A stretch of DNA of 64,000 bases from Patescibacteria group bacterium (GTDB lineage: Bacteria > Patescibacteriota > Patescibacteriia > UBA2196). The stretch is taken from NCBI GenBank assembly GCA_036845805.1, contig DAIUDD010000002.1:129112-193111 (forward strand), written 5' to 3'. Position numbers and translations under genes: made by a program. Position 1 is the first letter of the stretch. Every line of letters begins with the position of its first letter. The notes beneath the pieces are model-generated. The model saw only the letters and a program-made list of their open reading frames with translations, was not told the DNA's origin and did no database searches. Of this stretch, positions 3,079-43,578 are shown piece after piece.

Positions 3079-3573
3079 CTAGGATTTAGTTAAATTAGAA
3101 GATAAATTTTCGGGGATAGATTTTTCAGTTTTATTTTTTTCTGATTCTTCACTGTTTTGATAATGATTTTGAAAATAAAATTCAACAAGAGAAAAAAGAA
3201 TAACTAATAAAAGTAGATTCCACCAGGTAACCAAGCGCTGACTTTGTAACAATAATGTACCAACGATAATTAAAGCAAACCAAATACTTTGGCGGCCGGA
3301 AGCAATCATCTGATCGGCGGGAAAAACACTATGATGAAAAAAATAACGCATTAAAAATCCAAACAAAGAAAATGTCCCAACTAAAGCAAAAAATAAGGAG
3401 AGATAAAACAAAACAAAAACAAAAAAAGTAGCGCTTTCGGGGTTAATATTAAAGACTACCAAAAACCAAGCACCCCAACTCAACAATAAGGAAAAAATTA
3501 TAAAAATAAGGTAGGTTTTTAAAGACATTTTAATTAAACCTTGAAAGTTTTCCCAAGGTTGATTAAACTTCAC
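3079..3573 (-). CDS. Integral membrane protein (hypothetical, 4 TM)
   Basis: 164-aa hydrophobic ORF; no family recognised. Confidence 0.4.
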   Translation of the reverse strand: MKFNQPWENFQGLIKMSLKTYLIFIIFSLLLSWGAWFLVVFNINPESATFFVFVLFYLSLFFALVGTFSLFGFLMRYFFHHSVFPADQMIASGRQSIWFALIIVGTLLLQSQRLVTWWNLLLLVILFSLVEFYFQNHYQNSEESEKNKTEKSIPENLSSNLTKS

Positions 3574-3699
3574 TATTTACTTTAATTTTACCAAAATAAC
3601 AGATCTTTAGCAAACACAGTTAAAAACAGAAAATCCCGGCTTTAAGGCGGGATTTTCTGTTCTCTAAAAAATTGCTTTTGGCTAAAAAACAATAAAAGA

Positions 3700-3876
3700 T
3701 TAAAGATCAGCTGGTCTGATAGTTGATCTTTTGTTATCTTCACATCTTTTGGCGGCTTTGTCAAGCATATGAGCAACTTCTTTGCTCAAAGCTTCAGCCA
3801 AATCGCCAGCCATATGAAGATTTTTGCCTTTGACATAGGCTTTAACTTTGGAACCGACTACAAGCATGTCTTCCAT
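3700..3876 (-). CDS. Bacterial histone-fold DNA-binding protein (Bd0055/HBb-like, DUF1931-like singlet histone)
   Basis: Hand-translated 58-aa ORF, below the ORF-track cutoff: MEDMLVVGSKVKAYVKGKNLHMAGDLAEALSKEVAHMLDKAAKRCEDNKRSTIRPADL. Aligns residue-by-residue with my recollection of Bdellovibrio histone Bd0055 (MAEVLVVTSKVKKLIKEKGQMNTSAETIDVLSKAIEQLCLKAVDSAKADGRKTVMARDI), including the 'VVxSKVK' motif and the C-terminal 'RKT/RST-I-xxxDI' motif of the histone fold. Confidence 0.55.
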   Translation of the reverse strand: MEDMLVVGSKVKAYVKGKNLHMAGDLAEALSKEVAHMLDKAAKRCEDNKRSTIRPADL

Positions 3877-3994
3877 AATATTATTGAGTTTAAATTTGTT
3901 TTAAATTTAAACTAATTAATTTTAATTTAATGTTGCGCAAAACTTAAAGATATTATAGCAAATTGGGGAAAAAAATAACAATTTCTTTTTTAAG

Positions 3995-4068
3995 CGGAGC
4001 GGACGAGACTTGAACTCGCGACCTCTGCCGTGACAGGGCAGCGTTCTAACCAACTGAACTACCGCTCC
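3995..4068 (-). tRNA. tRNA-Asp (GTC)
   Basis: Hand-folded cloverleaf GGAGCGG-TA-GTTC..GAAC-G-CTGCC-CTGTCAC-GGCAG-..-GCGAG-TTCAAGT-CTCGT-CCGCTCC-G. Anticodon GTC; no encoded CCA. Confidence 0.8.
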
Positions 4069-4090
4069 GCGCAAAAAAGAAAAGTAAATT

Positions 4091-4411
4091 TTATTCATTC
4101 CAAAAAATCAAAGCTACAGAAATTATACCTAAAAAAATACCCACTAATTGTATTTTTGTCAAATATTCTTTATACAAAATAATGCCTATCAAGCTAGCAA
4201 AAACAGCGGAAACAACAGAAAAAATTACTGCGCCTCTGGCTAAACCAGAACCATTTTTTAAAGCAAATAACCAAAAAGTATTAGCTATAACATATGCCAA
4301 AATAGCACCAACGGCCCAAACTAAACCTGTTTTTAAAGACCATTCTTTGGCCAAAATATCTGCAATTATCTCAAACAAAATTAATAAACTTAAGAAAAAT
4401 ATCCAGTTCAT
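4091..4411 (-). CDS. Small multidrug resistance (SMR/EmrE-like) 4-TM transporter
   Basis: 106 aa with four TM helices and a conserved Glu in TM1 ('FEIIADILAKEW'), typical of the SMR/DMT superfamily. Confidence 0.65.
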   Translation of the reverse strand: MNWIFFLSLLILFEIIADILAKEWSLKTGLVWAVGAILAYVIANTFWLFALKNGSGLARGAVIFSVVSAVFASLIGIILYKEYLTKIQLVGIFLGIISVALIFWNE

Positions 4412-4575: not shown

Positions 4576-6039
4576 TTAGTTTCTAATTTCTAATTTCTCC
4601 CCCACTCCAAACAAAATCTCTTCTCCCCACCATGGGCCGATGAGTTGCGCGCCAATTGGCAAACCGGCTTTGGTTTGGCCACAAGGAATTGACATGGCGG
4701 GCAGACCGGCTAAATTAACTGGCACAGTAAAAATATCTTCCAAATACATGGTCAAAGGATCATTAATTTTTTCACCGATTTTAAAAGCGGGCGTGGGAGT
4801 GGTGGGAGTTAATAAAAGATCAACTTGCTTAAATACTTTTTCAAAATCTTCGCGAATTAAAGCACGCACTTGCTGCGCTTTTTTATAATAGGCATCATAG
4901 TAACCAGCAGACAAAGTATAAGTGCCGAGCATTATTCTTCTTTTAACTTCTTCGCCCAAAAATTCAGCCCTTGTTTTTTTATAATGAGCTAACAAATTTT
5001 CTGAATCTACAGACTGGCCATAACGAATGCCATCAAAACGAGCCAAATTAGCGCTGGTTTCGGCTGGCTGAATTATATAATAAACAGCGAGCGCATATTC
5101 GGTATGCGGCAAACTAATATCAATAATTTGGGCGCCTAATTCTTCAGCTTTTTTGATTGCTTCTTTCACCGATTTCTCTACTTCCGGATCGATTCCAGCA
5201 ACAAAATATTCTTTAGGAATGCCGATTTTAAGATTCTTCAAATTTTCTTTTCCCTTAATTTCTTCATTTCTGGTTGCTTCAGCAACCATCCCGCCGTGGC
5301 GGGATGAAAGCGGAGCTTTCAATTTCTTAATTTCCATGCTAGTTGCATCTTTTTCATCTTTGCCTTTAATGACATCAAAAACAATTTTAGCATCAGCCAC
5401 TGTTTTGGTTAGAGGGCCAACTTGATCCAAAGATGAGGCCATGGCAATCAAACCATAACGGGAAACTGCGCCATAAGTTGGTTTTAGACCAACTACGCCG
5501 CAAAAAGTAGCTGGTTCGCGCACTGAACCGCCAGTATCAGTGCCGAGCGCATAAACAGCTAAATCAGCAGCCACGGCGGCGGCGGAACCACCAGAAGACC
5601 CGCCAGGCACGCGCTCTAAGTCATGGGGGTTTTTTACCAAGCCAAAACCAGAATTTTCATTAGAGCCGCCCATGGCAAATTCATCACAATTATTTTTACC
5701 TAAAATCACCGCGTCGGCGTTTTTTATTTTGGCGACGGCCATGGCGTCGTATGGAGCAAAGTAATTAGCTAAAATTTTGGAAGCGGCAGTGGTTTTGATG
5801 CCTTCAGTCATTAAAACATCTTTCACGCTCATTGGGATGCCAGCCAATAAAGAAATTTCAGCACCATTTTTAATTTTTTCATCAACAACAGCGGCTTGAG
5901 CTAAAGCTTCATCTTTAGTCACGGTAATAAAAGCATTAAGTTCCGGGTTTTTGTTTTCAAGACGCGCTAAATATTCGCGGGTTAATTCGACCGCAGAGAA
6001 TTTTTTATTAATTAATTTTTCATGAAGTTCTTGGATCAT
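4576..6039 (-). CDS. gatA: Glutamyl-tRNA(Gln) amidotransferase subunit A
   Basis: Amidase signature 'GGSSGGSAAAVAA' plus 'GTDTGGSVREPA'; 487 aa; immediately downstream of gatC. Confidence 0.9.
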   Translation of the reverse strand: MIQELHEKLINKKFSAVELTREYLARLENKNPELNAFITVTKDEALAQAAVVDEKIKNGAEISLLAGIPMSVKDVLMTEGIKTTAASKILANYFAPYDAMAVAKIKNADAVILGKNNCDEFAMGGSNENSGFGLVKNPHDLERVPGGSSGGSAAAVAADLAVYALGTDTGGSVREPATFCGVVGLKPTYGAVSRYGLIAMASSLDQVGPLTKTVADAKIVFDVIKGKDEKDATSMEIKKLKAPLSSRHGGMVAEATRNEEIKGKENLKNLKIGIPKEYFVAGIDPEVEKSVKEAIKKAEELGAQIIDISLPHTEYALAVYYIIQPAETSANLARFDGIRYGQSVDSENLLAHYKKTRAEFLGEEVKRRIMLGTYTLSAGYYDAYYKKAQQVRALIREDFEKVFKQVDLLLTPTTPTPAFKIGEKINDPLTMYLEDIFTVPVNLAGLPAMSIPCGQTKAGLPIGAQLIGPWWGEEILFGVGEKLEIRN

Positions 6040-6149
6040 AATTTTATGTCATGCCGTCCCGCGTTCGCGGGATCGGCATCTCTTTATTTCAAAATAATCT
6101 TAGGTTGAGAGATCCTGAAATAAATTCAGGATGACAAAATAAATTAAAA

Positions 6150-6488
6150 CTAAAACACTGACCTGACTTTCACTTGCCCCTTCTCTACTTCTGGCGCCAT
6201 ATCAATTAATTCCCCAAATTTCTCCTGCCTGCCATCGCCTGACGGCGAAGCCAATGGCGGGCAGGCTACTTCTTTATTTCTTAATTTCTCCTCATCTTCC
6301 CGCCAAACATTGGTCAAATCAATCGTGCCGCCATCAGCGGTAGGCACGTTTTGTGTATCAACCTCTTTTAATTTATTCATATAATCTAAAATGCGATCAA
6401 GCTGGGCTTGATATTTTTCTACTTCATCATTAGTTAAACTGATTTTAGCTAAATCAGCTATATGTTCGACATCACTTTTGGTAAGCAT
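6150..6488 (-). CDS. gatC: Asp/Glu-tRNA amidotransferase subunit C
   Basis: 112 aa; N-terminus 'LTKSDVEHIADLAKISLTNDEVEKYQAQLDRILDYMNKL' matches GatC; sits upstream of gatA. Confidence 0.8.
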   Translation of the reverse strand: MLTKSDVEHIADLAKISLTNDEVEKYQAQLDRILDYMNKLKEVDTQNVPTADGGTIDLTNVWREDEEKLRNKEVACPPLASPSGDGRQEKFGELIDMAPEVEKGQVKVRSVF

Positions 6489-8835: not shown

Positions 8836-9073
8836 GCTCTGTTTTATTTTGTCGTCCCGAACTCCCGCCCGCCTCGCAAGCGAGAGCGTTGCGGGCAGGT
8901 GTTTCAGGATCTCTATAATAAAAAAATTATTCTTTGTAAAAAGATGCTGAAATAAATTCAGCATGACAAAAAACATTACTATTATAATAAATTCATTTTA
9001 CCTCTAAAAATCAATTTTTTCAAGCAAACAAAAAATTACCATCTCTGATAATTTTTTGTTTTATAATTTAAAA

Positions 9074-9586: not shown

Positions 9587-9628
9587 AAATATAAAAAACA
9601 AATTTTATATTAAAAAATATTTTTCAAT

Positions 9629-9672
9629 TGCCTGGGGGCAGAACCCCGATGGACATCGGGGCGCAAGGATAC
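9629..9672 (-). pseudogene. Degenerate 3' fragment of tRNA-Phe (duplicate of anticodon-stem-to-3'-end region, T-stem replaced by a CCCCGATG..CATCGGGG hairpin)
   Basis: 27-nt identical repeat 'atatttttcaattgcctgggggcagaa' at 9611-9637 and 9697-9723; reverse complement reads ...ATCCTTGCG[CCCCGATGTCCATCGGGG]TTCTGCCCCCAGGCA. Confidence 0.5.
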
Positions 9673-9710
9673 ATTCCACAACGGGTTTTGATATTAAAAT
9701 ATTTTTCAAT

Positions 9711-9782
9711 TGCCTGGGGGCAGAATCGGACTGCCGACGCAAGGATTTTCAGTCCTTCGCTCTACCACTGAGCTACCCAGGC
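9711..9782 (-). tRNA. tRNA-Phe (GAA)
   Basis: GCCTGGG-TA-GCTC..GAGC-AAGGA-CTGAAAA-TCCTT-..-GGCAG-TCCGATT-CTGCC-CCCAGGC-A. Anticodon GAA. Confidence 0.8.
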
Positions 9783-9789
9783 ATTAATT

Positions 9790-9830
9790 TGGGCATGGAT
9801 GGATTTGAACCATCGACATTCACCTTATAC
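9790..9830 (-). pseudogene. tRNA 3'-half fragment (Ile-like; anticodon loop to acceptor 3' strand CATGCCCA)
   Basis: Reverse complement TATAAGGTGAATGTCGATGGTTCAAATCCATCCATGCCCA parallels the 3' half of the adjacent intact tRNA-Ile. Confidence 0.45.
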
Positions 9831-9876
9831 TAAATATAATTACTGCGTTCGCAAAAAATATAAATGTCAAGACAAT

Positions 9877-9952
9877 TGGTGGGCACGGGTGGATTTGAAC
9901 CACCGACATCCACCTTATAAGGGTGGCGCTCTAACCGCTGAGCTACGTGCCC
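9877..9952 (-). tRNA. tRNA-Ile (TAT), CCA encoded
   Basis: GGGCACG-TA-GCTC..GAGC-G-CCACC-CTTATAA-GGTGG-..-GGTGG-TTCAAAT-CCACC-CGTGCCC-A-CCA. Anticodon read as UAU. Confidence 0.6.
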
Positions 9953-9990
9953 AGTGGTTTTAACATTTACATTTTATTGCTCTCTGGTAA

Positions 9991-10074
9991 TTATAAGGGT
10001 GGCGCTCTAACCCGCCCGCCTCGCAAGCGAGAGCGTTGCGGGCAGGCCGCTCGACTACATGCCCTTTATTATAA
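9991..10074 (-). pseudogene. tRNA 5'-half fragment (acceptor GGGCATG + D-arm + anticodon stem/loop) with a 35-nt GC-rich palindromic element inserted in the D-loop
   Basis: Reverse complement GGGCATGTAGTCGAGCGG[CCTGCCCGCAACGCTCTCGCTTGCGAGGCGGGCGG]GTTAGAGCGCCACCCTTATAA. The 5' acceptor GGGCATG is exactly complementary to the 3' fragment at 9790-9830 (CATGCCC). Confidence 0.45.
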
Positions 10075-16670: not shown

Positions 16671-17777
16671 TTAATTTAAAATCGCCGTTAAATATTTTTC
16701 ACCAGTATAATCCACAAAAATTTTATTAATTTGTTCCCCCAATTCTTTTTGTGATTGTTCATCAACTAATAAATTTTTAATCTGGGCCACCAATTTTTCG
16801 CTTGTTAATTCTTTTTGTGATAAATAAAGAGCGGATTTTTTCTCTGCAAAATACTTGGCATTTTCCTCTTGGTGCGAATCGGGAATCGGAATAATAATAG
16901 TTGGTTTTTTAAAATAGGCCAGTTCGGTTAAAGTGGACATGCCAGCACGAGAAATGACCAGGGTTGCCTTAGAATAAACCACGGCCAGCTGATCTGCATT
17001 TAAAAATGTAAATTGCTGATAATTTTCTCTGGCATTTTGGCGCTGGATACCTGCCTTGCCGGCAGGCAGGCTTTGACACTTGTTTTTACCAGTCAGGTGA
17101 ATGATATTACAAAACTTAGTCAATTTCTCTAATGACTGCCAAACTAATTCATTAAGGAACAAAGCACCAGTGCCACCGCCAAGAACGAGAACTATTGGTA
17201 AATTATTATTAAAATGAACAAACATTTTTTCTCTTAATTTCTCTATTTCTTTATTTCTTAATTTCTCTCTAACTGGATTACCAACTAAAACAGCTTTTTC
17301 TTTTTTAAAATCATCCAAAGATTTTTCTAAGGCCACGGTTATTTTTTTGGCAAACGGAGCCATTAATTTATTAGCCAGGCCCACCCGCACATCTTGCTGA
17401 TGCACAAAAATTGGCACTCTTAAAAACCAGCCAGCCCACGCCACAGGCACAGCCACAAAAGAGCCGGCAGTTAAAATTAAATCTGGCTTAAATTTTTTAA
17501 TAATAAAAAAAGCTTGCCAAAAGCCAACTTTAATTTTAAAAAAATCAAATAAATTTTTAAAAGAAAAATAACGGCGAAATTTACCGCCGACAATGGATTT
17601 AAAATTAATGCCTTCACTCTCAACCACTTGGCGCTCTGGGCCAAACCTGGTGCCTAACCATAAGGCTTCGTCACTCGGCACTTTGGCACTTTGACGCTTT
17701 GACACTAATTTCTGATGGGTGGCAATAAGCGGACTAACCGAACCCAAAGTGCCGCCACCGCTATAAAGAATTTTCAT
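16671..17777 (-). CDS. murG: UDP-GlcNAc:MurNAc-(pentapeptide)-PP-undecaprenol GlcNAc transferase
   Basis: GT28 features: N-terminal 'ILYSGGGTLGSVSPL', C-terminal 'VLVLGGGTGALFLNELV'; 368 aa. Confidence 0.8.
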   Translation of the reverse strand: MKILYSGGGTLGSVSPLIATHQKLVSKRQSAKVPSDEALWLGTRFGPERQVVESEGINFKSIVGGKFRRYFSFKNLFDFFKIKVGFWQAFFIIKKFKPDLILTAGSFVAVPVAWAGWFLRVPIFVHQQDVRVGLANKLMAPFAKKITVALEKSLDDFKKEKAVLVGNPVREKLRNKEIEKLREKMFVHFNNNLPIVLVLGGGTGALFLNELVWQSLEKLTKFCNIIHLTGKNKCQSLPAGKAGIQRQNARENYQQFTFLNADQLAVVYSKATLVISRAGMSTLTELAYFKKPTIIIPIPDSHQEENAKYFAEKKSALYLSQKELTSEKLVAQIKNLLVDEQSQKELGEQINKIFVDYTGEKYLTAILN

Positions 17778-18916: not shown

Positions 18917-20131
18917 TTATTTTTCTAAAACTTTTATTATATTGTCAACTAAATCATCAATATTTTCTGGATTAACAAAATTTGCTTTAAAATAATTCTG
19001 TAAAGATTCTTTAATGCCGCCAACATCCGAGGTAATAATTGGTAAATTAAATTCTTGGGCCTCTAAAAAAACCACGCCAAAACTTTCAGTATCTGTTGAA
19101 GGCGAGGTTCCGGAACCTCGCCTTCGAGGAGTCATAATAAACGCGTCGGCCAACTCATAATAATTAGGCAAATCTTGGTGTGGCACAGAACCAGCAAAAA
19201 TTACCCTATCGACACTTTTTATTTGAAAAGTGCCAGCCACATCATCCCCTCCTTTCGAAGGAGGGGCCTCTCGGCGATTAGCCGGAGGGGGAGGTAATAA
19301 TTCGTTGGCAATTTTAATTAATCTGTTTTTATCTGGGCCATCGCCAATAATTAGATAAACCAAATCTGGAATTTTCTGCCAAACTTTTGGCAAAGATTCA
19401 AGCACCCGATCAATACCTTTAGATTCTACCAAGCGCGCCACAGTTAATAAAACTTTTTTGTTAGCTAAATTATATTTTTCTTTTAATTCTGCTACTTTCT
19501 GTGGATCAACCATTTCTTTTTTTAATGTATTAACTGGATAAACAATTCTTATTTTTTCCGGCTGAACTTTAAAATCATTGATTAAAATATTTTTAGTAAA
19601 TTCAGTGTTGGCCTCAACAAATTCGGCGTCCTTCAAGATTTTCTTAGCTAACAAAAATTTGCGTTTATTCTTTTTGGCACGAAGCAAATCATTACCGTGG
19701 CAGGTGACAAAGTAAATTATGTCATTCCCGCCCCGCAAAATGCGGGGGGAATCCCCTTGAACTACGAGATCCTCACTTTTGTGAGGATGACAATGAGAAA
19801 ATAAATTCATTATTTTACAGATTAACCAAACCGCTGTGCCCACTGGCAAAATTTGCCCTGCCCATAAACGTTTAATTTTTTCTTTTTTTGCTATTTTATA
19901 AATGTGCCAAACTAAAGGCAGCCAGTGGGGCCAGATAAAACGCCAAAAAAAATGCTTATAAATTAATTTAAAATCATAAATCTTAAATCGTAAATCATAA
20001 ATCTCTGATTTATTCATCAAAACAACCACTGTCTTACCGGTATCAACCACCTGTCTGACTCTTTGCCTATAATAATTGGCAATGCCACCGATTAGGGGCG
20101 GAAAATCCATGGTAATTAAAAGCGTTTTCAT
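18917..20131 (-). CDS. Glycosyltransferase family 4 (GT-B) carrying multiple in-frame palindromic-repeat insertions
   Basis: C-terminal GT4 core 'VIFAGSVPHQDLPNYYELADAFIMTP...ESFGVVFLEAQEFNLPIITSDVGGIKE'. Segments 'PPPPANRREAPPSKGGD', 'RRRGSGTSPSTDT', 'CHPHKSEDL' and 'GDSPRILRGG' are encoded by hairpin repeats (see findings). Confidence 0.75.
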   Translation of the reverse strand: MKTLLITMDFPPLIGGIANYYRQRVRQVVDTGKTVVVLMNKSEIYDLRFKIYDFKLIYKHFFWRFIWPHWLPLVWHIYKIAKKEKIKRLWAGQILPVGTAVWLICKIMNLFSHCHPHKSEDLVVQGDSPRILRGGNDIIYFVTCHGNDLLRAKKNKRKFLLAKKILKDAEFVEANTEFTKNILINDFKVQPEKIRIVYPVNTLKKEMVDPQKVAELKEKYNLANKKVLLTVARLVESKGIDRVLESLPKVWQKIPDLVYLIIGDGPDKNRLIKIANELLPPPPANRREAPPSKGGDDVAGTFQIKSVDRVIFAGSVPHQDLPNYYELADAFIMTPRRRGSGTSPSTDTESFGVVFLEAQEFNLPIITSDVGGIKESLQNYFKANFVNPENIDDLVDNIIKVLEK

Positions 20132-21672: not shown

Positions 21673-21871
21673 ACAAATTTTATCCCCTCCTTACTAAGGA
21701 GGGGCCTCTCGCCACAAAGTGGCGGAGGGGGGGTTAAGAAAAACAAATTACTTTTAGTTTAGCAAAAAAATGTCAATCTGACAAAATATAAAAATCTCAT
21801 ATTTTCTACACTTGCCTCGAAAATGTAAAACTTTGTTTTACGTTTCACTCGCTCACTTGAAAATAAAAAGC

Positions 21872-24453: not shown

Positions 24454-24590
24454 GAAAATTAAATTGTTACTGTTGTCATCCTGAACTTGTTTCAGGATCT
24501 CAATTAACTAGTTATTATTGATGCAAAGAGATGCTGAAATAAATTCAGCATAACATAATAAAAAAATTTTATATTTTAAAGATGATTATT

Positions 24591-24842: not shown

Positions 24843-24906
24843 AAGAATTTAGATTCCTGATCCACCGCAAATGCGGGGCAGGCAGGTCGGGAATGACAAA
24901 ATGATT

Positions 24907-39957: not shown

Positions 39958-40200
39958 AAATTTATAGCCACGATAATCCGAGTTATAAGCCAAGTTAGAC
40001 AAAATGTTAGCTAAGAACCCAGAAAATCGTCATTAATTGATGTTTTGTATTTTAGCATAAAGTTAAAAATCTTGCAAGTTTGGCAAAAATAAGGTAAAGT
40101 GAGAATAACGATTTTAATCATGATGGCTTGCTTGCAACACCAATAAATCGGCTGGCGCGATGGGCAGAAAATAGTAATCTAAACATCAATTTTAAAAAAT

Positions 40201-40429
40201 AAGTTTTATTACTTGTGCCCTCATAGTTCAATGGAGTTCGAACCAGTAAAGCAAGCAAACCGCTTTGCTTGCGATGGTGAGAACGGGTTTGGGCTTGTGC
40301 CAATAGGCACGACCAAAACCAAGAACACCAGCCTTCTAAGCTGGTTATGTAGGTCCGCCCTAAACCATAAAGGTTTAGGGTGCCATGCACCTTTATGGTG
40401 CATGGCGATTCCTTATTCTTTGTGTTAAC
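40201..40429 (+). pseudogene. Degenerate tRNA-Arg(TCT) copy disrupted by a ~90-nt insertion in the D-loop and a double-hairpin insertion in the T-loop
   Basis: Contains GTGCCCTCATAGTTCAATGGA (acceptor/D 5' side), then ..AGAAC-ACCAGC-CTTCTAA-GCTGGT (intact anticodon arm, anticodon TCT), then TATGTAGGTCCG-[CCCTAAACC..GGTTTAGGG][CGCCATGCACC..GGTGCATGGCG]-ATTCCT (T-loop TCCGATTCCT split by two hairpins). No acceptor 3' strand. Confidence 0.45.
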
Positions 40430-40690
40430 ATGTATTATCATTATATTTTATTACTTGCCAATAGAAGTTTATATAATGGTTTTTCTAACGATTTAAAAAC
40501 TAGATTTTTTGAACATGAAAAAGGCAAGGTAAAATCTACGAAAAATTTGAGACCAGTCAAATTAATCTATTATGAAGCTTTTTTAAATAAAAATGACGCT
40601 TTAAGGAGAGAAAAATATTTCAAAACGAATAAAGGCAAAAAGATGACTAAAATAATATTAAGGGAGTTTTTTAATCAGATAGGCGAATAA
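40430..40690 (+). CDS. GIY-YIG family endonuclease (small Slx1/UPF0213-type, homing-endonuclease-like)
   Basis: 86 aa 'MYYHYILLLANRSLYNGFSNDLKTRFFEHEKGKVKSTKNLRPVKLIYYEAFLNKNDALRREKYFKTNKGKKMTKIIL', matching the GIY-(x10)-YIG pattern, the 'R..EH' motif and the C-terminal 'REK.LK' signature. Confidence 0.7.
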   Translation: MYYHYILLLANRSLYNGFSNDLKTRFFEHEKGKVKSTKNLRPVKLIYYEAFLNKNDALRREKYFKTNKGKKMTKIILREFFNQIGE

Positions 40691-40776
40691 GTTTTATTAC
40701 TTGTGCCCTCATAGTTCAATGGATACTTTTAATTTGCCAGTGGCAAATTAAAAGACCAGCCTTCTATTTATTTTTT
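40689..40776 (+). pseudogene. Second degenerate tRNA-Arg(TCT) 5' fragment (acceptor/D 5' side + hairpin insert + anticodon stem/loop), truncated
   Basis: 35-nt exact direct repeat of 40201-40235 (aagttttattacttgtgccctcatagttcaatgga), then hairpin CTTTTAATTTGCCA-GTGGCAAATTAAAAG, then ACCAGCCTTCTA (anticodon 5' stem + loop), then a T-run. Confidence 0.45.
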
Positions 40777-40848
40777 GCCCCCGTAGCACAATGGATAGTG
40801 CAGTAGCCTTCTAAGCTATTTATAGAGGTCCGATTCCTCTCGGGGGTA
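40777..40848 (+). tRNA. tRNA-Arg (TCT), intact
   Basis: GCCCCCG-TA-GCAC..GTGC-A-GTAGC-CTTCTAA-GCTAT-TTAT-AGAGG-TCCGATT-CCTCT-CGGGGGT-A. Confidence 0.75.
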
Positions 40849-40998
40849 CTTAGAAATGTAGGTCCGAGGGTTTCGCGGTGCCTGTCGGCACATCGCTCAA
40901 CCCGTTGTGGCTACAAAAAGTCAAGCAGTTGACTTTTTGTTTAACGCCACAACTCCACACTGAGGATATAGGTAATAAAATTTATTTTATAAATTAAA

Positions 40999-42246
40999 AT
41001 GGATCAAGAAATTTCCAATTTAATCAAAAAAGAAGAAGCTCGCCAAAGAGAGAGAATTACTTTGATCGCTTCGGAAAATTATGCTTCGCCAAACGTGCGC
41101 GAAGTTTTAAGTTCTGTTTTGGCTAATAAATATTCTGAGGGCGAACCTGGCAAAAGATATTATCAAGGCAATGAAATTATTGATGAAATTGAAACTCTAA
41201 CTAATGCTCGTGCATTAAAAGTTTTTGGTTTAAAAGAAAAAGATTGGCATGTAAATTGCAAAGCGGTTTCCGCTTCTATTGCTAATTTGGCAGTGATTTC
41301 TGGTTTACTAGAACCAGGGCAAAAAATTTTAGCCATGGATTTGACTCATGGCGGACACCTGTCTCATGGTTGGCAATTACCTTCAGGCAAACCAATTTCT
41401 CTTTCCTCAAAAATTTTTAAGGTCAGTTATTATGGTGTTAATAAAAAAACTAATCTTTTTGGTTATAATCAAATTTTGAAAATTGCTAAAAAGTTTAAGC
41501 CCGATTTAATAATTTCTGGCGGCACGGCCTATGCGCGGGATATTAATTATAAAAAAATGTCGGTTATTGCCAAAGCTGTTGGCGCTTATTATTTGGCTGA
41601 CATTGCTCATGAAGCTGGTTTAATTGCTGGCCGAGCGATAAATTCTCCATTTCCTTATGCTGATGTGGTCACCATGTCCACGCAAAAAACTTTAAGAGGT
41701 CCACGCGGCGCTATTATTATTTGTAAAAAAGAATTACAGGAAAAAATTGATAAAGGAATTTTTCCCGGGCTGATGGGTGGCCCTTGTGATAATGTTATTG
41801 CCGCCATTGCTGTTTGTCTAAAAGAAGCGCAAACAGGTGCCTTTAAAAAATATACCAAGCAAACAATAGTTAATGCCAAAGTTTTAGCTCAAGAATTGAA
41901 AAAATATGGTTTTAAAATTGTTACTGATGGTACAGACAAACATTTATTTTTAATTGATTTGAGAAATCTACCAACTGGCGGAAAAAATATCAATGGTCAC
42001 GAGGCTGCTGTTTTATTAGATAAAGCAGGTTTGGTTTGCAATAAAAATACTGTTCCATATGAAACAGGCACGCCCATGAAGCCCTCGGGCATCCGCCTTG
42101 GCACACCAGCTTGCACCACTCGGGGCATGAAAGAGGGTGAAATGAAAATTATTGCTAAATGGATTTATGAAGTTTTGGTTTTAAATAGAAAATCAGAAGA
42201 TGTACTTAAAGAAGTAAAACAGTTGACTAAGAGATTTAAGATTTAA
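40999..42246 (+). CDS. glyA: Serine hydroxymethyltransferase
   Basis: 'LIASENYASPNVREVLSSVLANKYSEG', PLP-Lys region 'VVTMSTQKTLRGPRGAII'; 415 aa. Confidence 0.9.
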   Translation: MDQEISNLIKKEEARQRERITLIASENYASPNVREVLSSVLANKYSEGEPGKRYYQGNEIIDEIETLTNARALKVFGLKEKDWHVNCKAVSASIANLAVISGLLEPGQKILAMDLTHGGHLSHGWQLPSGKPISLSSKIFKVSYYGVNKKTNLFGYNQILKIAKKFKPDLIISGGTAYARDINYKKMSVIAKAVGAYYLADIAHEAGLIAGRAINSPFPYADVVTMSTQKTLRGPRGAIIICKKELQEKIDKGIFPGLMGGPCDNVIAAIAVCLKEAQTGAFKKYTKQTIVNAKVLAQELKKYGFKIVTDGTDKHLFLIDLRNLPTGGKNINGHEAAVLLDKAGLVCNKNTVPYETGTPMKPSGIRLGTPACTTRGMKEGEMKIIAKWIYEVLVLNRKSEDVLKEVKQLTKRFKI

Positions 42247-42304
42247 TTATTTTTTCCCCTCTCCTTTATAAGGAGAGGGTGGGGAGAGGTATTAAAAACC
42301 GTGC

Positions 42305-42748
42305 ATGTTTACGCAACTTTACAATACGGTAGAACGGAAAAATATCAGAAGAGTGTTAAGGAAATCAATGCCTAAAGGTGAAAAACTTTTGTGGTCTAAA
42401 CTTAAAGCTAATCAATTAGGTTATAAATTTAAAAGACAATATAGTATCGGGGCATATATATTAGATTTTTATGCTCCCGCTATTAAACTATGCATTGAAA
42501 TTGACGGTCGAACTCATGATTATGATGAACAAACTAAATATGATGATAAAAGACAAAAATATTTGGAATCAATAGGTATAATTGTTAAAAGATTTAATAG
42601 TAAAGAAATTTTTGATAATATTAATTCAGTAGTAGAACAAATATGGTTCATCGGGGAAGATATTAAAAATAAAAACATAAAAACACCTCTCCCCAACCCT
42701 CCCCTTATTAAGGGAAGGGAGCCGACCTTCATAAGACAAATATGTTAA
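42305..42748 (+). CDS. DUF559 (Vsr/restriction-endonuclease-like fold) endonuclease-domain protein, flanked by GC-rich inverted repeats
   Basis: 'LWSKLKANQLGYKFKRQYSIGAYILDFYAPAIKLCIEIDGRTHDYDEQTKYDDKRQKYLESIGIIVKRF' is typical of DUF559. The last ~20 codons read through the right-hand repeat. Confidence 0.65.
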   Translation: MFTQLYNTVERKNIRRVLRKSMPKGEKLLWSKLKANQLGYKFKRQYSIGAYILDFYAPAIKLCIEIDGRTHDYDEQTKYDDKRQKYLESIGIIVKRFNSKEIFDNINSVVEQIWFIGEDIKNKNIKTPLPNPPLIKGREPTFIRQIC

Positions 42749-43578
42749 ATAACCAAGTTTTTCTTGATGGCAAAGCCGAAGCGGAAAAGCTTATTAATTC
42801 ATTAAAGCAACAAATTGCCCAAAAAAAGATGAACTTAAGCTTGGCCGTTATTTTGGTTGGCAATAACCCGGCTTCTAAGGTCTATGTTAATATTAAAGAA
42901 AAAAGAGCTAAAGAATTGGGGGTGGAATTTAAAAAATATATTTTACCAGCTACTGTGAGTGAAAATAAAATTTTAACTTTAATTAATAAATTAAATAATA
43001 ATAAAAAAATAACTGGGATTTTGTTGCAATTACCTTTACCAAAAAAATTTAAGACTAATAAAATAATCCAAGCTATTGATATCAAGAAAGATGTGGATGG
43101 GCTCTGTCCCTCTCTCCTTACGAAGGAGAGGGGTGGGGTGAGGTTATTAATTATTTCACCAACTATTCAAGCAATTTCACACTTAATCAAATTATCAAAA
43201 ATAAGGTTAGCGGGTAAAAAGGCAGTGATTTTATGCCATAGCCAAGAATTTGCTCAATCGTTGAAGCAAGAATTATGTAGACAAAAAATTAGTGTGGACG
43301 TTTTATTGAAACCTCCTATTAAAACTCATAATTCATTATCCGTAATTCATTATTCAATTGTTATTATTGCTTTGGGCAAAAAATATTTTCTTAAATCAAA
43401 AATGATCAAAAAAAATGCGGTTATTATTGATGTGGGTATAAACAGGGTTGATAAAAAAATATTTGGTGATGTTGATCCAAGATGTTTTAAAAAAACAAAA
43501 TACATTTCGCCAGTACCGGGCGGGGTAGGACCTTTAACAGTGGCTTATTTATTTAAAAATTTAATAAAATTAAAATAA
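42742..43578 (+). CDS. folD: Bifunctional methylenetetrahydrofolate dehydrogenase/cyclohydrolase carrying an in-frame palindromic insertion
   Basis: FolD motifs 'ILLQLPLP', 'KDVDG', 'IIDVGINR', 'PVPGGVGPLTVAYL'. The expected 'HPxNxGxL' segment after KDVDG is replaced by 'LCPSLLTKERGGVRL', encoded by a GC-rich hairpin repeat (43101-43145). Confidence 0.75.
   Translation: MLNNQVFLDGKAEAEKLINSLKQQIAQKKMNLSLAVILVGNNPASKVYVNIKEKRAKELGVEFKKYILPATVSENKILTLINKLNNNKKITGILLQLPLPKKFKTNKIIQAIDIKKDVDGLCPSLLTKERGGVRLLIISPTIQAISHLIKLSKIRLAGKKAVILCHSQEFAQSLKQELCRQKISVDVLLKPPIKTHNSLSVIHYSIVIIALGKKYFLKSKMIKKNAVIIDVGINRVDKKIFGDVDPRCFKKTKYISPVPGGVGPLTVAYLFKNLIKLK

Follow-up and report, generated by a model that had tools for sequence, protein, structure and literature searches.

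In a 64,000-nucleotide stretch of a Patescibacteria group genome (contig DAIUDD010000002.1 of assembly GCA_036845805.1, positions 129,112 to 193,111; the whole stretch is hereafter called the window and numbered from its first letter), a gene encoding a predicted DUF559 nuclease of the YcjD family lies between the conserved genes glyA and folD, bracketed by two inverted copies of a short GC-rich repeat, while a third copy sits in frame inside folD. Here, we describe this repeat as a hairpin followed by a tail that mirrors one of its arms, the layout of the BoxC/PIT/TM class of intrastrand-triplex repeats, and show that such units accompany DUF559 genes at many other loci, in numerous phyla of bacteria. 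We consider it somewhat probable that DUF559 proteins and triplex-class repeats form a nuclease-repeat partnership comparable to that of repetitive extragenic palindromic (REP) sequences and REP-associated tyrosine transposases (RAYTs), with a mechanism that we infer. The observation from which we started, made in a first-pass annotation of the same DNA, is real, and it is more general than first described.

The window is low in GC (~36%), with small genes and many tRNAs. At the locus, glyA (40999-42246), the DUF559 open reading frame (ORF; 42305-42748, 147 amino acids) and folD (42742-43578) follow one another on the forward strand. The left repeat unit (42256-42290, forward strand) and the inverted right unit (42685-42721, reverse strand) both have their tails toward the DUF559 gene, and a solo unit (43108-43144, forward strand) encodes residues 123-134 of FolD (PSLLTKERGGVR). 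A search with the pattern CCTTNNNAAGGRGAGGGN{1,3}GGGGWGAGG, which has 21 specified bases, returned exactly these three units in the window and no match in any of 100 dinucleotide-preserving shuffles of it; the three GC-rich copies listed in the first-pass annotation thus exist, with a unit of ~36 nt and slightly refined coordinates. The repeats do bracket the DUF559 gene between glyA and folD, as had been described, but the right one sits inside the 3′ end of the ORF. No Rfam family was found at the repeats, either in a gathering scan of the whole window or in an E-value scan of 40050-41000.

On the forward strand, the left unit reads CCCCTCTCCTT TAT AAGGAGAGGG T GGGGAGAGGT and comprises a pyrimidine arm (42257-42266), a loop (42267-42269), a purine arm (42270-42279), a spacer (42280) and a mirror tail (42281-42290), and the folD unit reads CCCTCTCTCCTT ACG AAGGAGAGGGG T GGGGTGAGGT. 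The right unit, ACCTCTCCCC AA CCCTCCCCTT ATT AAGGGAAGGG AG on the same strand, presents the complement of its tail first (42685-42694), then the spacer AA and an imperfect hairpin (42697-42719), and this tail complement pairs with the left tail at 10 of 10 positions. When folded as single strands, every window unit forms a 10-11-bp hairpin that leaves the 10-nt tail unpaired, with energies of -10.1, -7.9 and -9.3 kcal/mol (z-scores -3.4, -1.9 and -3.4) for the left, right and folD hairpins, respectively. Compared with its own purine arm, the left tail is a mirror repeat at 10 of 10 positions and a direct repeat at 7 of 10.

The same design recurs outside the window. In general, a unit runs from a pyrimidine arm through a loop to a purine arm, which is followed by 1-3 nt and a tail of G, A or T mirroring that purine arm, and the pyrimidine-arm-first fold is shared by all three window units and by 157 hairpins flanking DUF559 genes. 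Among the 81 of these 157 that have a clear tail, the mirror-repeat model prevailed over the direct-repeat model by 59:2. The tail base facing a purine-arm G is G in 99% of cases (n=469); of the tail bases that face a purine-arm A, 59% are T and 38% are A (n=257). Mirror matching amounts to 0.74 gene-proximally, compared with 0.59 distally and 0.58 with shuffled tails. This base correspondence is the one known from the G*G:C, A*A:T and T*A:T triplets in antiparallel purine-motif triplexes, and the tail would fold back as the third strand of one. A tail that pairs as a direct repeat with the pyrimidine arm is excluded both by the 59:2 ratio and by the T opposite A:T, which is not a Watson-Crick arrangement.

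These features set the repeats apart from ordinary terminal inverted repeats (TIRs) or a pair of MITEs (miniature inverted-repeat transposable elements), for which they had initially been taken. Inverted repeats at both ends of the gene are indeed present in the window and in L015, L064, L136, L187, L214 and others. However, the units are hairpins with mirror tails, the cassette holds no DDE, serine or tyrosine transposase (DUF559 is its sole ORF), and most copies outside DUF559 loci are single units and not paired ends.

Across 80 metagenomic DUF559 loci (38-55% identity), a GC-rich, pyrimidine-first hairpin lies upstream of the gene at 58, downstream at 55 and on both sides at 41, with 14-35 hairpins in each of the three 50-nt bins that border the gene on either side, mostly 0-3 per bin far away, and almost none within the gene itself. 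On the same contigs, hairpins mark 106 of 142 DUF559 gene ends versus 5 of 68 ends of other ORFs (odds ratio 37, p = 2e-21), and both ends are occupied in 39 of 71 DUF559 genes versus 0 of 34 control ORFs. The usual layout is unit(+), gene, unit(-), with tails facing the gene by 39:15 upstream and 37:17 downstream. Stems vary between loci (CCTCTCC, CCTCCCC, CCCCCC and others), and the upstream and downstream units of one locus co-vary. Moreover, hairpins distant from the gene reproduce the DUF559-flanking arms of their own contig exactly in 16 of 36 cases, where 7% would be expected from other contigs (p = 1.7e-5), and many DUF559 homologues carry N- or C-terminal extensions (PSPLQGEG, PLPLLNKGGE) that are unit read-through. 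Eight of the 134 solo-pattern matches listed lie within 300 nt of a DUF559 domain, an adjacency that is far above chance for so rare a gene. A literature search returned nothing linking DUF559 or YcjD to such repeats.

Such tight placement at the 5′ and 3′ ends of the gene would also suit cis-regulatory or insulating hairpins of the DUF559 transcript (a terminator, an attenuator or an mRNA-stabilizing stem-loop), the more so as the two tails are complementary and could pair across the mRNA; the folD copy would then be coincidental. We regard this as very improbable, given that hundreds of units lie away from any DUF559 gene, some of them within coding regions, that no T-run follows the hairpins, and that the mirror-tail rule has no Watson-Crick rationale. 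Purine-motif triplexes, in addition, do not form in RNA, and PIT elements have neither promoter nor terminator activity (as cited in PMC4666352).

That the DUF559 gene and its two inverted triplex-class units constitute a ~0.47-kb insertion between glyA and folD is well supported. Two contigs that carry close FolD relatives, L001 and L004, have no sequence inserted between glyA and folD, which adjoin directly or overlap; this bears out the inserted cassette that the first-pass annotation had proposed from the repeats. A second repeat-flanked copy was found in L015, where a 71%-identical DUF559 gene with both inverted units lies at an unrelated locus, between an unassigned gene and a GT2 glycosyltransferase gene. 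In L011, a metagenome-assembled genome (MAG) from NCBI, an 80%-identical DUF559 gene occupies the same locus as in the window; it too is flanked by repeats, with a hairpin on the right, and the folD unit stands at the same codon position. The window and L011 share 80% identity in GlyA, 80% in DUF559 and 70% in FolD, and their left units are identical at 34 of 35 positions even though synonymous sites of the DUF559 gene are saturated (dS = 1.3). L011 also has an extra ~0.9 kb between cassette and folD (3420-4283), with small opposite-strand ORFs (67 amino acids; 54 amino acids in one sibling contig).

Against L011 and L015, the ratio of non-synonymous to synonymous substitution (dN/dS) of the DUF559 gene is 0.07-0.09, with dS > 1, and the gene is, as judged from these rates, under strong purifying selection. 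The identical protein occurs on contigs of up to 722 kb, and six contigs of the same species, from different samples, have an identical three-copy layout. Taken with the L011 and L015 comparisons, the dN/dS values point to a gene that is functional, old and largely vertically inherited, and that has relocated together with its repeats at least once.

The protein itself matches the Pfam family PF04480 (E = 1.3e-27, 96.3 bits against a cut-off of 20.6; domain at amino acids 12-114) and the PDB entry 3HRL (E = 4e-16). It is 35% identical to E. coli YcjD, of which it is a homologue and not an equivalog, because the YcjD equivalog model gives it 63 bits against a 218-bit cut-off. The invariant residues E5, W9, Q24, D33, E44, D46, H50 and R75 (numbering of the 126-amino-acid form) are all kept. 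Homologues share the conserved N-terminal extension MFTQLYN..., in favour of 42305 as the start, while the last ~20 amino acids are read-through of the right unit, and the ORF overlaps the folD start codon by 7 nt. Pfam and NCBIfam scans of the protein yielded only restriction-endonuclease-like (nuclease-type) families and no Y1 HUH transposase. As for other settings in which the protein might work, phages were dismissed as carriers, with just 5 relatives among 2.9 million viral contigs, and so was a role in defence systems, PADLOC having given only weak similarity to restriction-nuclease folds. The neighbouring genes had been identified correctly: the glyA product (serine hydroxymethyltransferase) matches Pfam SHMT with E = 5e-143, and that of folD, a bifunctional methylene-tetrahydrofolate dehydrogenase/cyclohydrolase, matches PF00763 and PF02882.

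In the partnership that we favour, the DUF559 protein would be a structure-specific nicking nuclease with a Vsr-like D...ExDG..H active site. It would recognize its own cognate units folded on transiently single-stranded DNA, each forming a hairpin onto which the tail docks as third strand, and nick near the folded unit; repair or copying initiated at the nick would then maintain the units and occasionally spread single ones to new sites. More rarely, the DUF559 gene and its two flanking inverted units may be dispersed together.

Alternatively, DUF559 could be a selfish gene resembling a homing endonuclease, which cuts existing TM sites and is copied in by repair, so that the flanking repeats are halves of its target and solo units have spread by other means. 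A ~125-amino-acid nuclease gene between conserved genes, with an empty site in relatives, does look like a free-standing homing endonuclease gene, and the Vsr-like fold is used by the homing endonuclease family I-Bth0305I. Solo units also far outnumber DUF559 genes, and ‘tails-inside’ doublets 14-30 nt apart (L067, L075, L094, L098, L111) could be empty targets or deletion remnants. Yet single units and tails-outside forms are far commoner than such short doublets, and the gene is vertically stable and under strong purifying selection, showing no decay cycle or patchiness of the kind usual for homing genes. The co-variation of repeats with gene lineage, and the match of distant units to the flanks of their own gene, would speak against homing as well, but a nuclease tracking its target also predicts them. 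On balance, we judge the homing alternative unlikely.

Units have also entered proteins. In FolD, the unit is a 12-amino-acid insertion in the linker that joins the catalytic domain to the NAD(P)-binding domain, with the invariants S45, Y48, K52, KDVDG and PVPGGVGP all kept. The copy keeps the frame, as first noticed, and is a true insertion: it is absent from P0001 (KDVDG-LNSSK-LISPT) and from more than 10 other orthologues. The companion claim that it replaces the conserved segment HPxNxGxL did not hold. In an alignment of 33 FolD sequences, the clade natively lacks the canonical FHPxNxGxL, its ‘empty’ members reading KDVDGF-xxx-KIIPPT and only the more distant P0040 retaining FHPEN, and the unit just adds ~12 amino acids. 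The unit family occupies the same FolD site in L011 and P0007/L004. Because many other relatives carry unrelated insertions at this linker, some also at a second hot spot, we regard it as a permissive, hypervariable position. In the AlphaFold2 model (mean pLDDT 89.9, pTM 0.88), the insert is a low-confidence loop (mean pLDDT 57 for residues 121-130, <50 for 127-130) between the two domains of a confident fold. Elsewhere in the alignment, other repeat peptides are found at the two hot spots, namely CHPE..RCRNKFGMT at the first in P0005, P0006, P0009 and P0014, and the widespread VIPAEAGIQK..LDSRSxSGMT at the second (columns ~250-270) in P0006, P0008 and P0014.

FolD is one case among many, with 40 of the 134 solo matches listed lying inside long ORFs. 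All 10 of the long ORFs that were checked encode bona fide proteins: initiation factor IF-2, leucyl-tRNA synthetase, ATP synthase gamma, a radical SAM enzyme, an M16 peptidase, FemAB, hydantoinase B, a PKD/LTD protein and two C-terminal sorting domains of the type IX secretion system. Depending on strand and frame, the unit encodes PLLxKERGxGEV, SPxPSPYxGEG or PHPxPLLxKER. As units measure 36-39 nt and several of their frames contain no stop codon, those copies inserted into tolerant surface loops of a protein, such as that of FolD, would survive. For the annotation of minimal genomes, this means that units add peptides of 12-13 amino acids (PLLxKERGxGEV, SPxPSPYxGEG) to housekeeping proteins in Patescibacteria and other phyla. 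The window contains further GC-rich palindromic stretches within genes, in frame in the housekeeping genes gatA (5272-5320) and gatC (6221-6272) and also in a GT4 glycosyltransferase gene (19100-19131, 19245-19296 and 19720-19759), several of which belong to repeat families other than the DUF559-associated one; in the window gatC, the 66 positions of the Pfam GatC profile are stretched over 91 amino acids.

When one genome per species was searched, the exact pattern matched at least 120 contigs. Their hosts include Nostocales and other Cyanobacteria, Gastranaerophilales, many Patescibacteria, Ignavibacteriota, Bacteroidota, Alpha-, Gamma- and Deltaproteobacteria, Nitrospirae, Armatimonadetes, Spirochaetales, Elusimicrobia and Chloroflexi. 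Across these matches stems are conserved and loops freely variable, and in some copies a larger structure is closed by a complementary ‘tail’ lying further upstream. Variants of the basic unit were also seen: a cyanobacterial MAG (L084, 1796-1946) has four triplex units head to tail with a 41-nt period, and in Nostoc (e.g. L032, L034, L042, L045) the unit forms part of a conserved MITE-like repeat of greater length. Two triplex-type units of the window, at 19245-19296 and 21684-21735 (CCCCTCCTT..AAGGAGGGG .. GGGGAGGT), carry an extra small hairpin in the second loop, whose stems differ between the copies by compensatory changes.

The pairing of a DUF559 gene with a triplex repeat is also found in E. 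coli K-12, where ycjD has fabI on one side and sapF on the other. Its stop codon is overlapped by a degenerate unit, and a canonical TM_ECO follows 167 nt downstream of the gene; the repeat beside ycjD is no. 9 in Table S2 of Holder et al., given there without comment (PMC4666352). In the same K-12 region (L216, 7195-7480), the last ~45 nt of ycjD are duplicated ~70 nt downstream, between the stop codon and TM_ECO, which suggests a past rearrangement at the gene-repeat junction. The gene is present in 3378 of 5426 complete E. coli genomes, and its site is occupied by ycjD in phylogroups A, B1 and C and in ST69 and ST182, and elsewhere by eefRABCD (PMC12817139). A BLAST search with ycjD and its TM against all complete genomes yielded an evenly spread sample, in which the median number of TM-containing places was 19 in 37 ycjD+ genomes versus 8 in 23 ycjD- genomes (p = 1e-9). 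Strains that we take to belong to phylogroups A, B1 and C have 13-30 TM_ECO copies, those presumably of B2 have 1-2, those that we place with O157/O55 have 10-11, and presumptive D/F strains have 6-13. The copy numbers by strain are those of Table S7 of Holder et al. (PMC4666352).

Several observations weigh against a nuclease-repeat partnership. Some of them also favour an alternative in which TM units need no dedicated enzyme and are spread by host replication and repair (template switching, slippage), with DUF559 as a repair nuclease or a passenger. At least one TM copy is kept by all 5426 E. coli genomes, those without ycjD included, and TM places number 11-12 in the two ycjD+ genomes whose allele is divergent (92% identity), no more than in their ycjD- relatives, several of which have 12-13. 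The correlation between ycjD and TM count is confounded by phylogeny and compatible with shared ancestry alone; we have downgraded it as causal evidence because the divergent-allele ycjD+ strains resemble ycjD- strains in count. Just ~6% of solo units adjoin a DUF559 gene among the matches listed, the other 94% having none nearby. Holder et al., furthermore, found TM_ECO to be ‘never’ associated with mobility genes, and tied the repeats to local instability (PMC4666352). Nevertheless, spreading by host processes alone leaves unexplained why units occupy both ends of DUF559 genes but not the ends of neighbouring ORFs, why they are inverted with a preference for tails toward the gene, why their sequences are cognate to the locus, and why gene and repeats appear jointly at unrelated loci, so that we hold this alternative to be distinctly unlikely.

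The remaining difficulties concern architecture, mobility and mechanism. The tail is turned the other way in about 30% of flanking units, 36 of 88 DUF559 loci lack a gene-facing unit when strict criteria are applied, and the tail of the TM unit beside E. coli ycjD points away from the gene. Judging by the identities shared with L011, the cassette is old and vertically inherited here, and the six same-species contigs show no sign of recent mobility. Target-site duplications were not seen in the window or L011, and a possible ATCG duplication flanks the cassette in L015 only; the nearest FolD relatives of the window have 60-70% identity, and because the strongly diverged empty sites and the filled ones are only ~60-70% identical at the protein level, neither the insertion boundaries nor target-site duplications can be defined there. 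Holder et al. detected no triplex in double-stranded DNA or in vivo (PMC4666352). The partnership also asks much of a small protein. A lone PD-(D/E)XK nuclease is incapable of strand transfer or ligation by itself, we know of no DUF559 protein with a described biochemical activity, and the nearest structure, 3HRL, is to our knowledge uncharacterized.

Aside from the DUF559-associated units, the window contains other repeats, several of them linked to tRNA genes. On the reverse strand, at 9793-9832, 9877-9952 and 9985-10060, two halves of a degenerate tRNA-Ile with matching acceptor arms flank an intact tRNA-Ile(TAT). In the D-loop of the 5′ half lies a GC-rich palindrome of 36 nt (10011-10046), with a 100% identical copy at 8864-8899, upstream of the gene for the CCA-adding enzyme. 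A duplicate of the tRNA-Phe 3′ end (9614-9668) shares 30 identical nt with 9696-9725 and has the hairpin CCCCGATGTCCATCGGGG in place of the T-arm. In the region 40203-40905, a 35-bp direct repeat (40203-40237, identical to 40690-40724), the start of which resembles tRNA-Arg, encloses a GC-rich tRNA-Arg(TCT)-like stretch with insertions of ~90 nt in the D-loop and ~50 nt in the T-loop and, after it, a GIY-YIG nuclease gene (~40430-40690). Next comes an intact tRNA-Arg(TCT) (40777-40849), the only part of the region recognized by Rfam, and then another T-arm-like fragment; the whole may be a second type of nuclease cassette, one that targets tRNA genes. A separate family of palindromes with CCTGCC(C)...GGGCAGG outer arms and variable inner hairpins (6221-6272, 8864-8899, 10011-10046, 17037-17079 and 24856-24895) is found in intergenic DNA, in gatC and in the tRNA fragment, and an AT-rich hairpin repeat, AGATGCTGAAATAAATTCAGCATGACA, recurs in intergenic regions (6091-6155, 8923-8987 and 24510-24574).

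If the partnership exists, two orphans would explain each other, namely the BoxC/PIT/TM repeats and DUF559, a very large nuclease family with E. coli YcjD among its members; no earlier natural nuclease system would be keyed to a DNA triplex, and REP/RAYT would gain a new analogue. The link between DUF559 and the repeats is directly testable in E. coli K-12 with YcjD and TM_ECO. A wider proposal, which we put forward tentatively and consider on the doubtful side, is that DUF559/YcjD proteins are triplex-recognizing nucleases and the missing partner enzymes of BoxC/PIT/TM repeats, forming together with inverted cognate units a pan-bacterial, hitherto unrecognized class of self-propagating element, the 36-39-nt offspring of which settle in intergenic DNA and also, in frame, in essential genes. 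The repeat class as such was known before; what appears to be undescribed is its partnership with a nuclease, the architecture of the cassette and the colonization of essential genes in frame.

BoxC/PIT/TM repeats have been on record since the 1990s (Bachellier; Hoyne and Maher 2000), and we know of no function, mobility mechanism or partner enzyme for them. The window units share the class II layout (C-rich arm, loop, G-rich arm, short second loop, G-rich mirror), the conserved stems and variable loops, the ‘palindromic’ paired forms and the multi-copy, widespread occurrence, cyanobacteria included. For TM_ECO, Holder et al. (2015) give the consensus CCCTCNCCC N3-6 GGGNGAGGG N3 GGGNGAGGG, oligonucleotides of which form a triplex in vitro by circular dichroism and nuclear magnetic resonance, and report class II repeats to be abundant in E. 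coli, Enterobacter, cyanobacteria and Neisseria (PMC4666352). The window stem, CCCTCTCCTT/AAGGAGAGGG, differs from CCCTCNCCC/GGGNGAGGG, the second loop is 1-2 nt instead of 3, and the units here flank a nuclease gene and sit in frame, whereas TM_ECO is reported to be strictly intergenic in E. coli and to have no associated enzyme. By sequence and layout, the window units are best assigned to the BoxC/PIT/TM structural class as a different sequence subfamily that does not match the TM_ECO consensus.

With Vsr and I-Bth0305I, DUF559 has in common the fold class and the acidic/histidine motif D...ExDG..H, from which Mg-dependent nicking or cleavage of DNA would be predicted by analogy. There is, however, no T:G mismatch or Dcm context, DUF559 is a separate Pfam family, and no intron or intein accompanies it. 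Rickettsia palindromic elements (RPEs) are likewise short palindromes inserted in frame in ORFs, essential genes too, at permissive surface positions of the encoded proteins, and have no known transposase; they are, however, ~100-150 bp long, AT-richer and confined to Rickettsia, whereas the present units are 36-39 nt, GC-rich, of triplex type and spread over many phyla.

A further parallel is with REP/RAYT (TnpA_REP), a correspondence that is one of architecture only. The RAYT protein is a Y1 HUH transposase where here there is a Vsr-like PD-(D/E)XK protein, a REP is a simple hairpin with a GTAG head where here a hairpin carries a triplex-type tail, and REPs are extragenic, whereas DUF559-type units also occur in coding sequence. 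In both systems, nevertheless, a single small nuclease-type gene, vertically inherited and under purifying selection, is flanked by inverted cognate palindromic repeats that co-vary with the gene lineage and are dispersed as solo and doublet copies.

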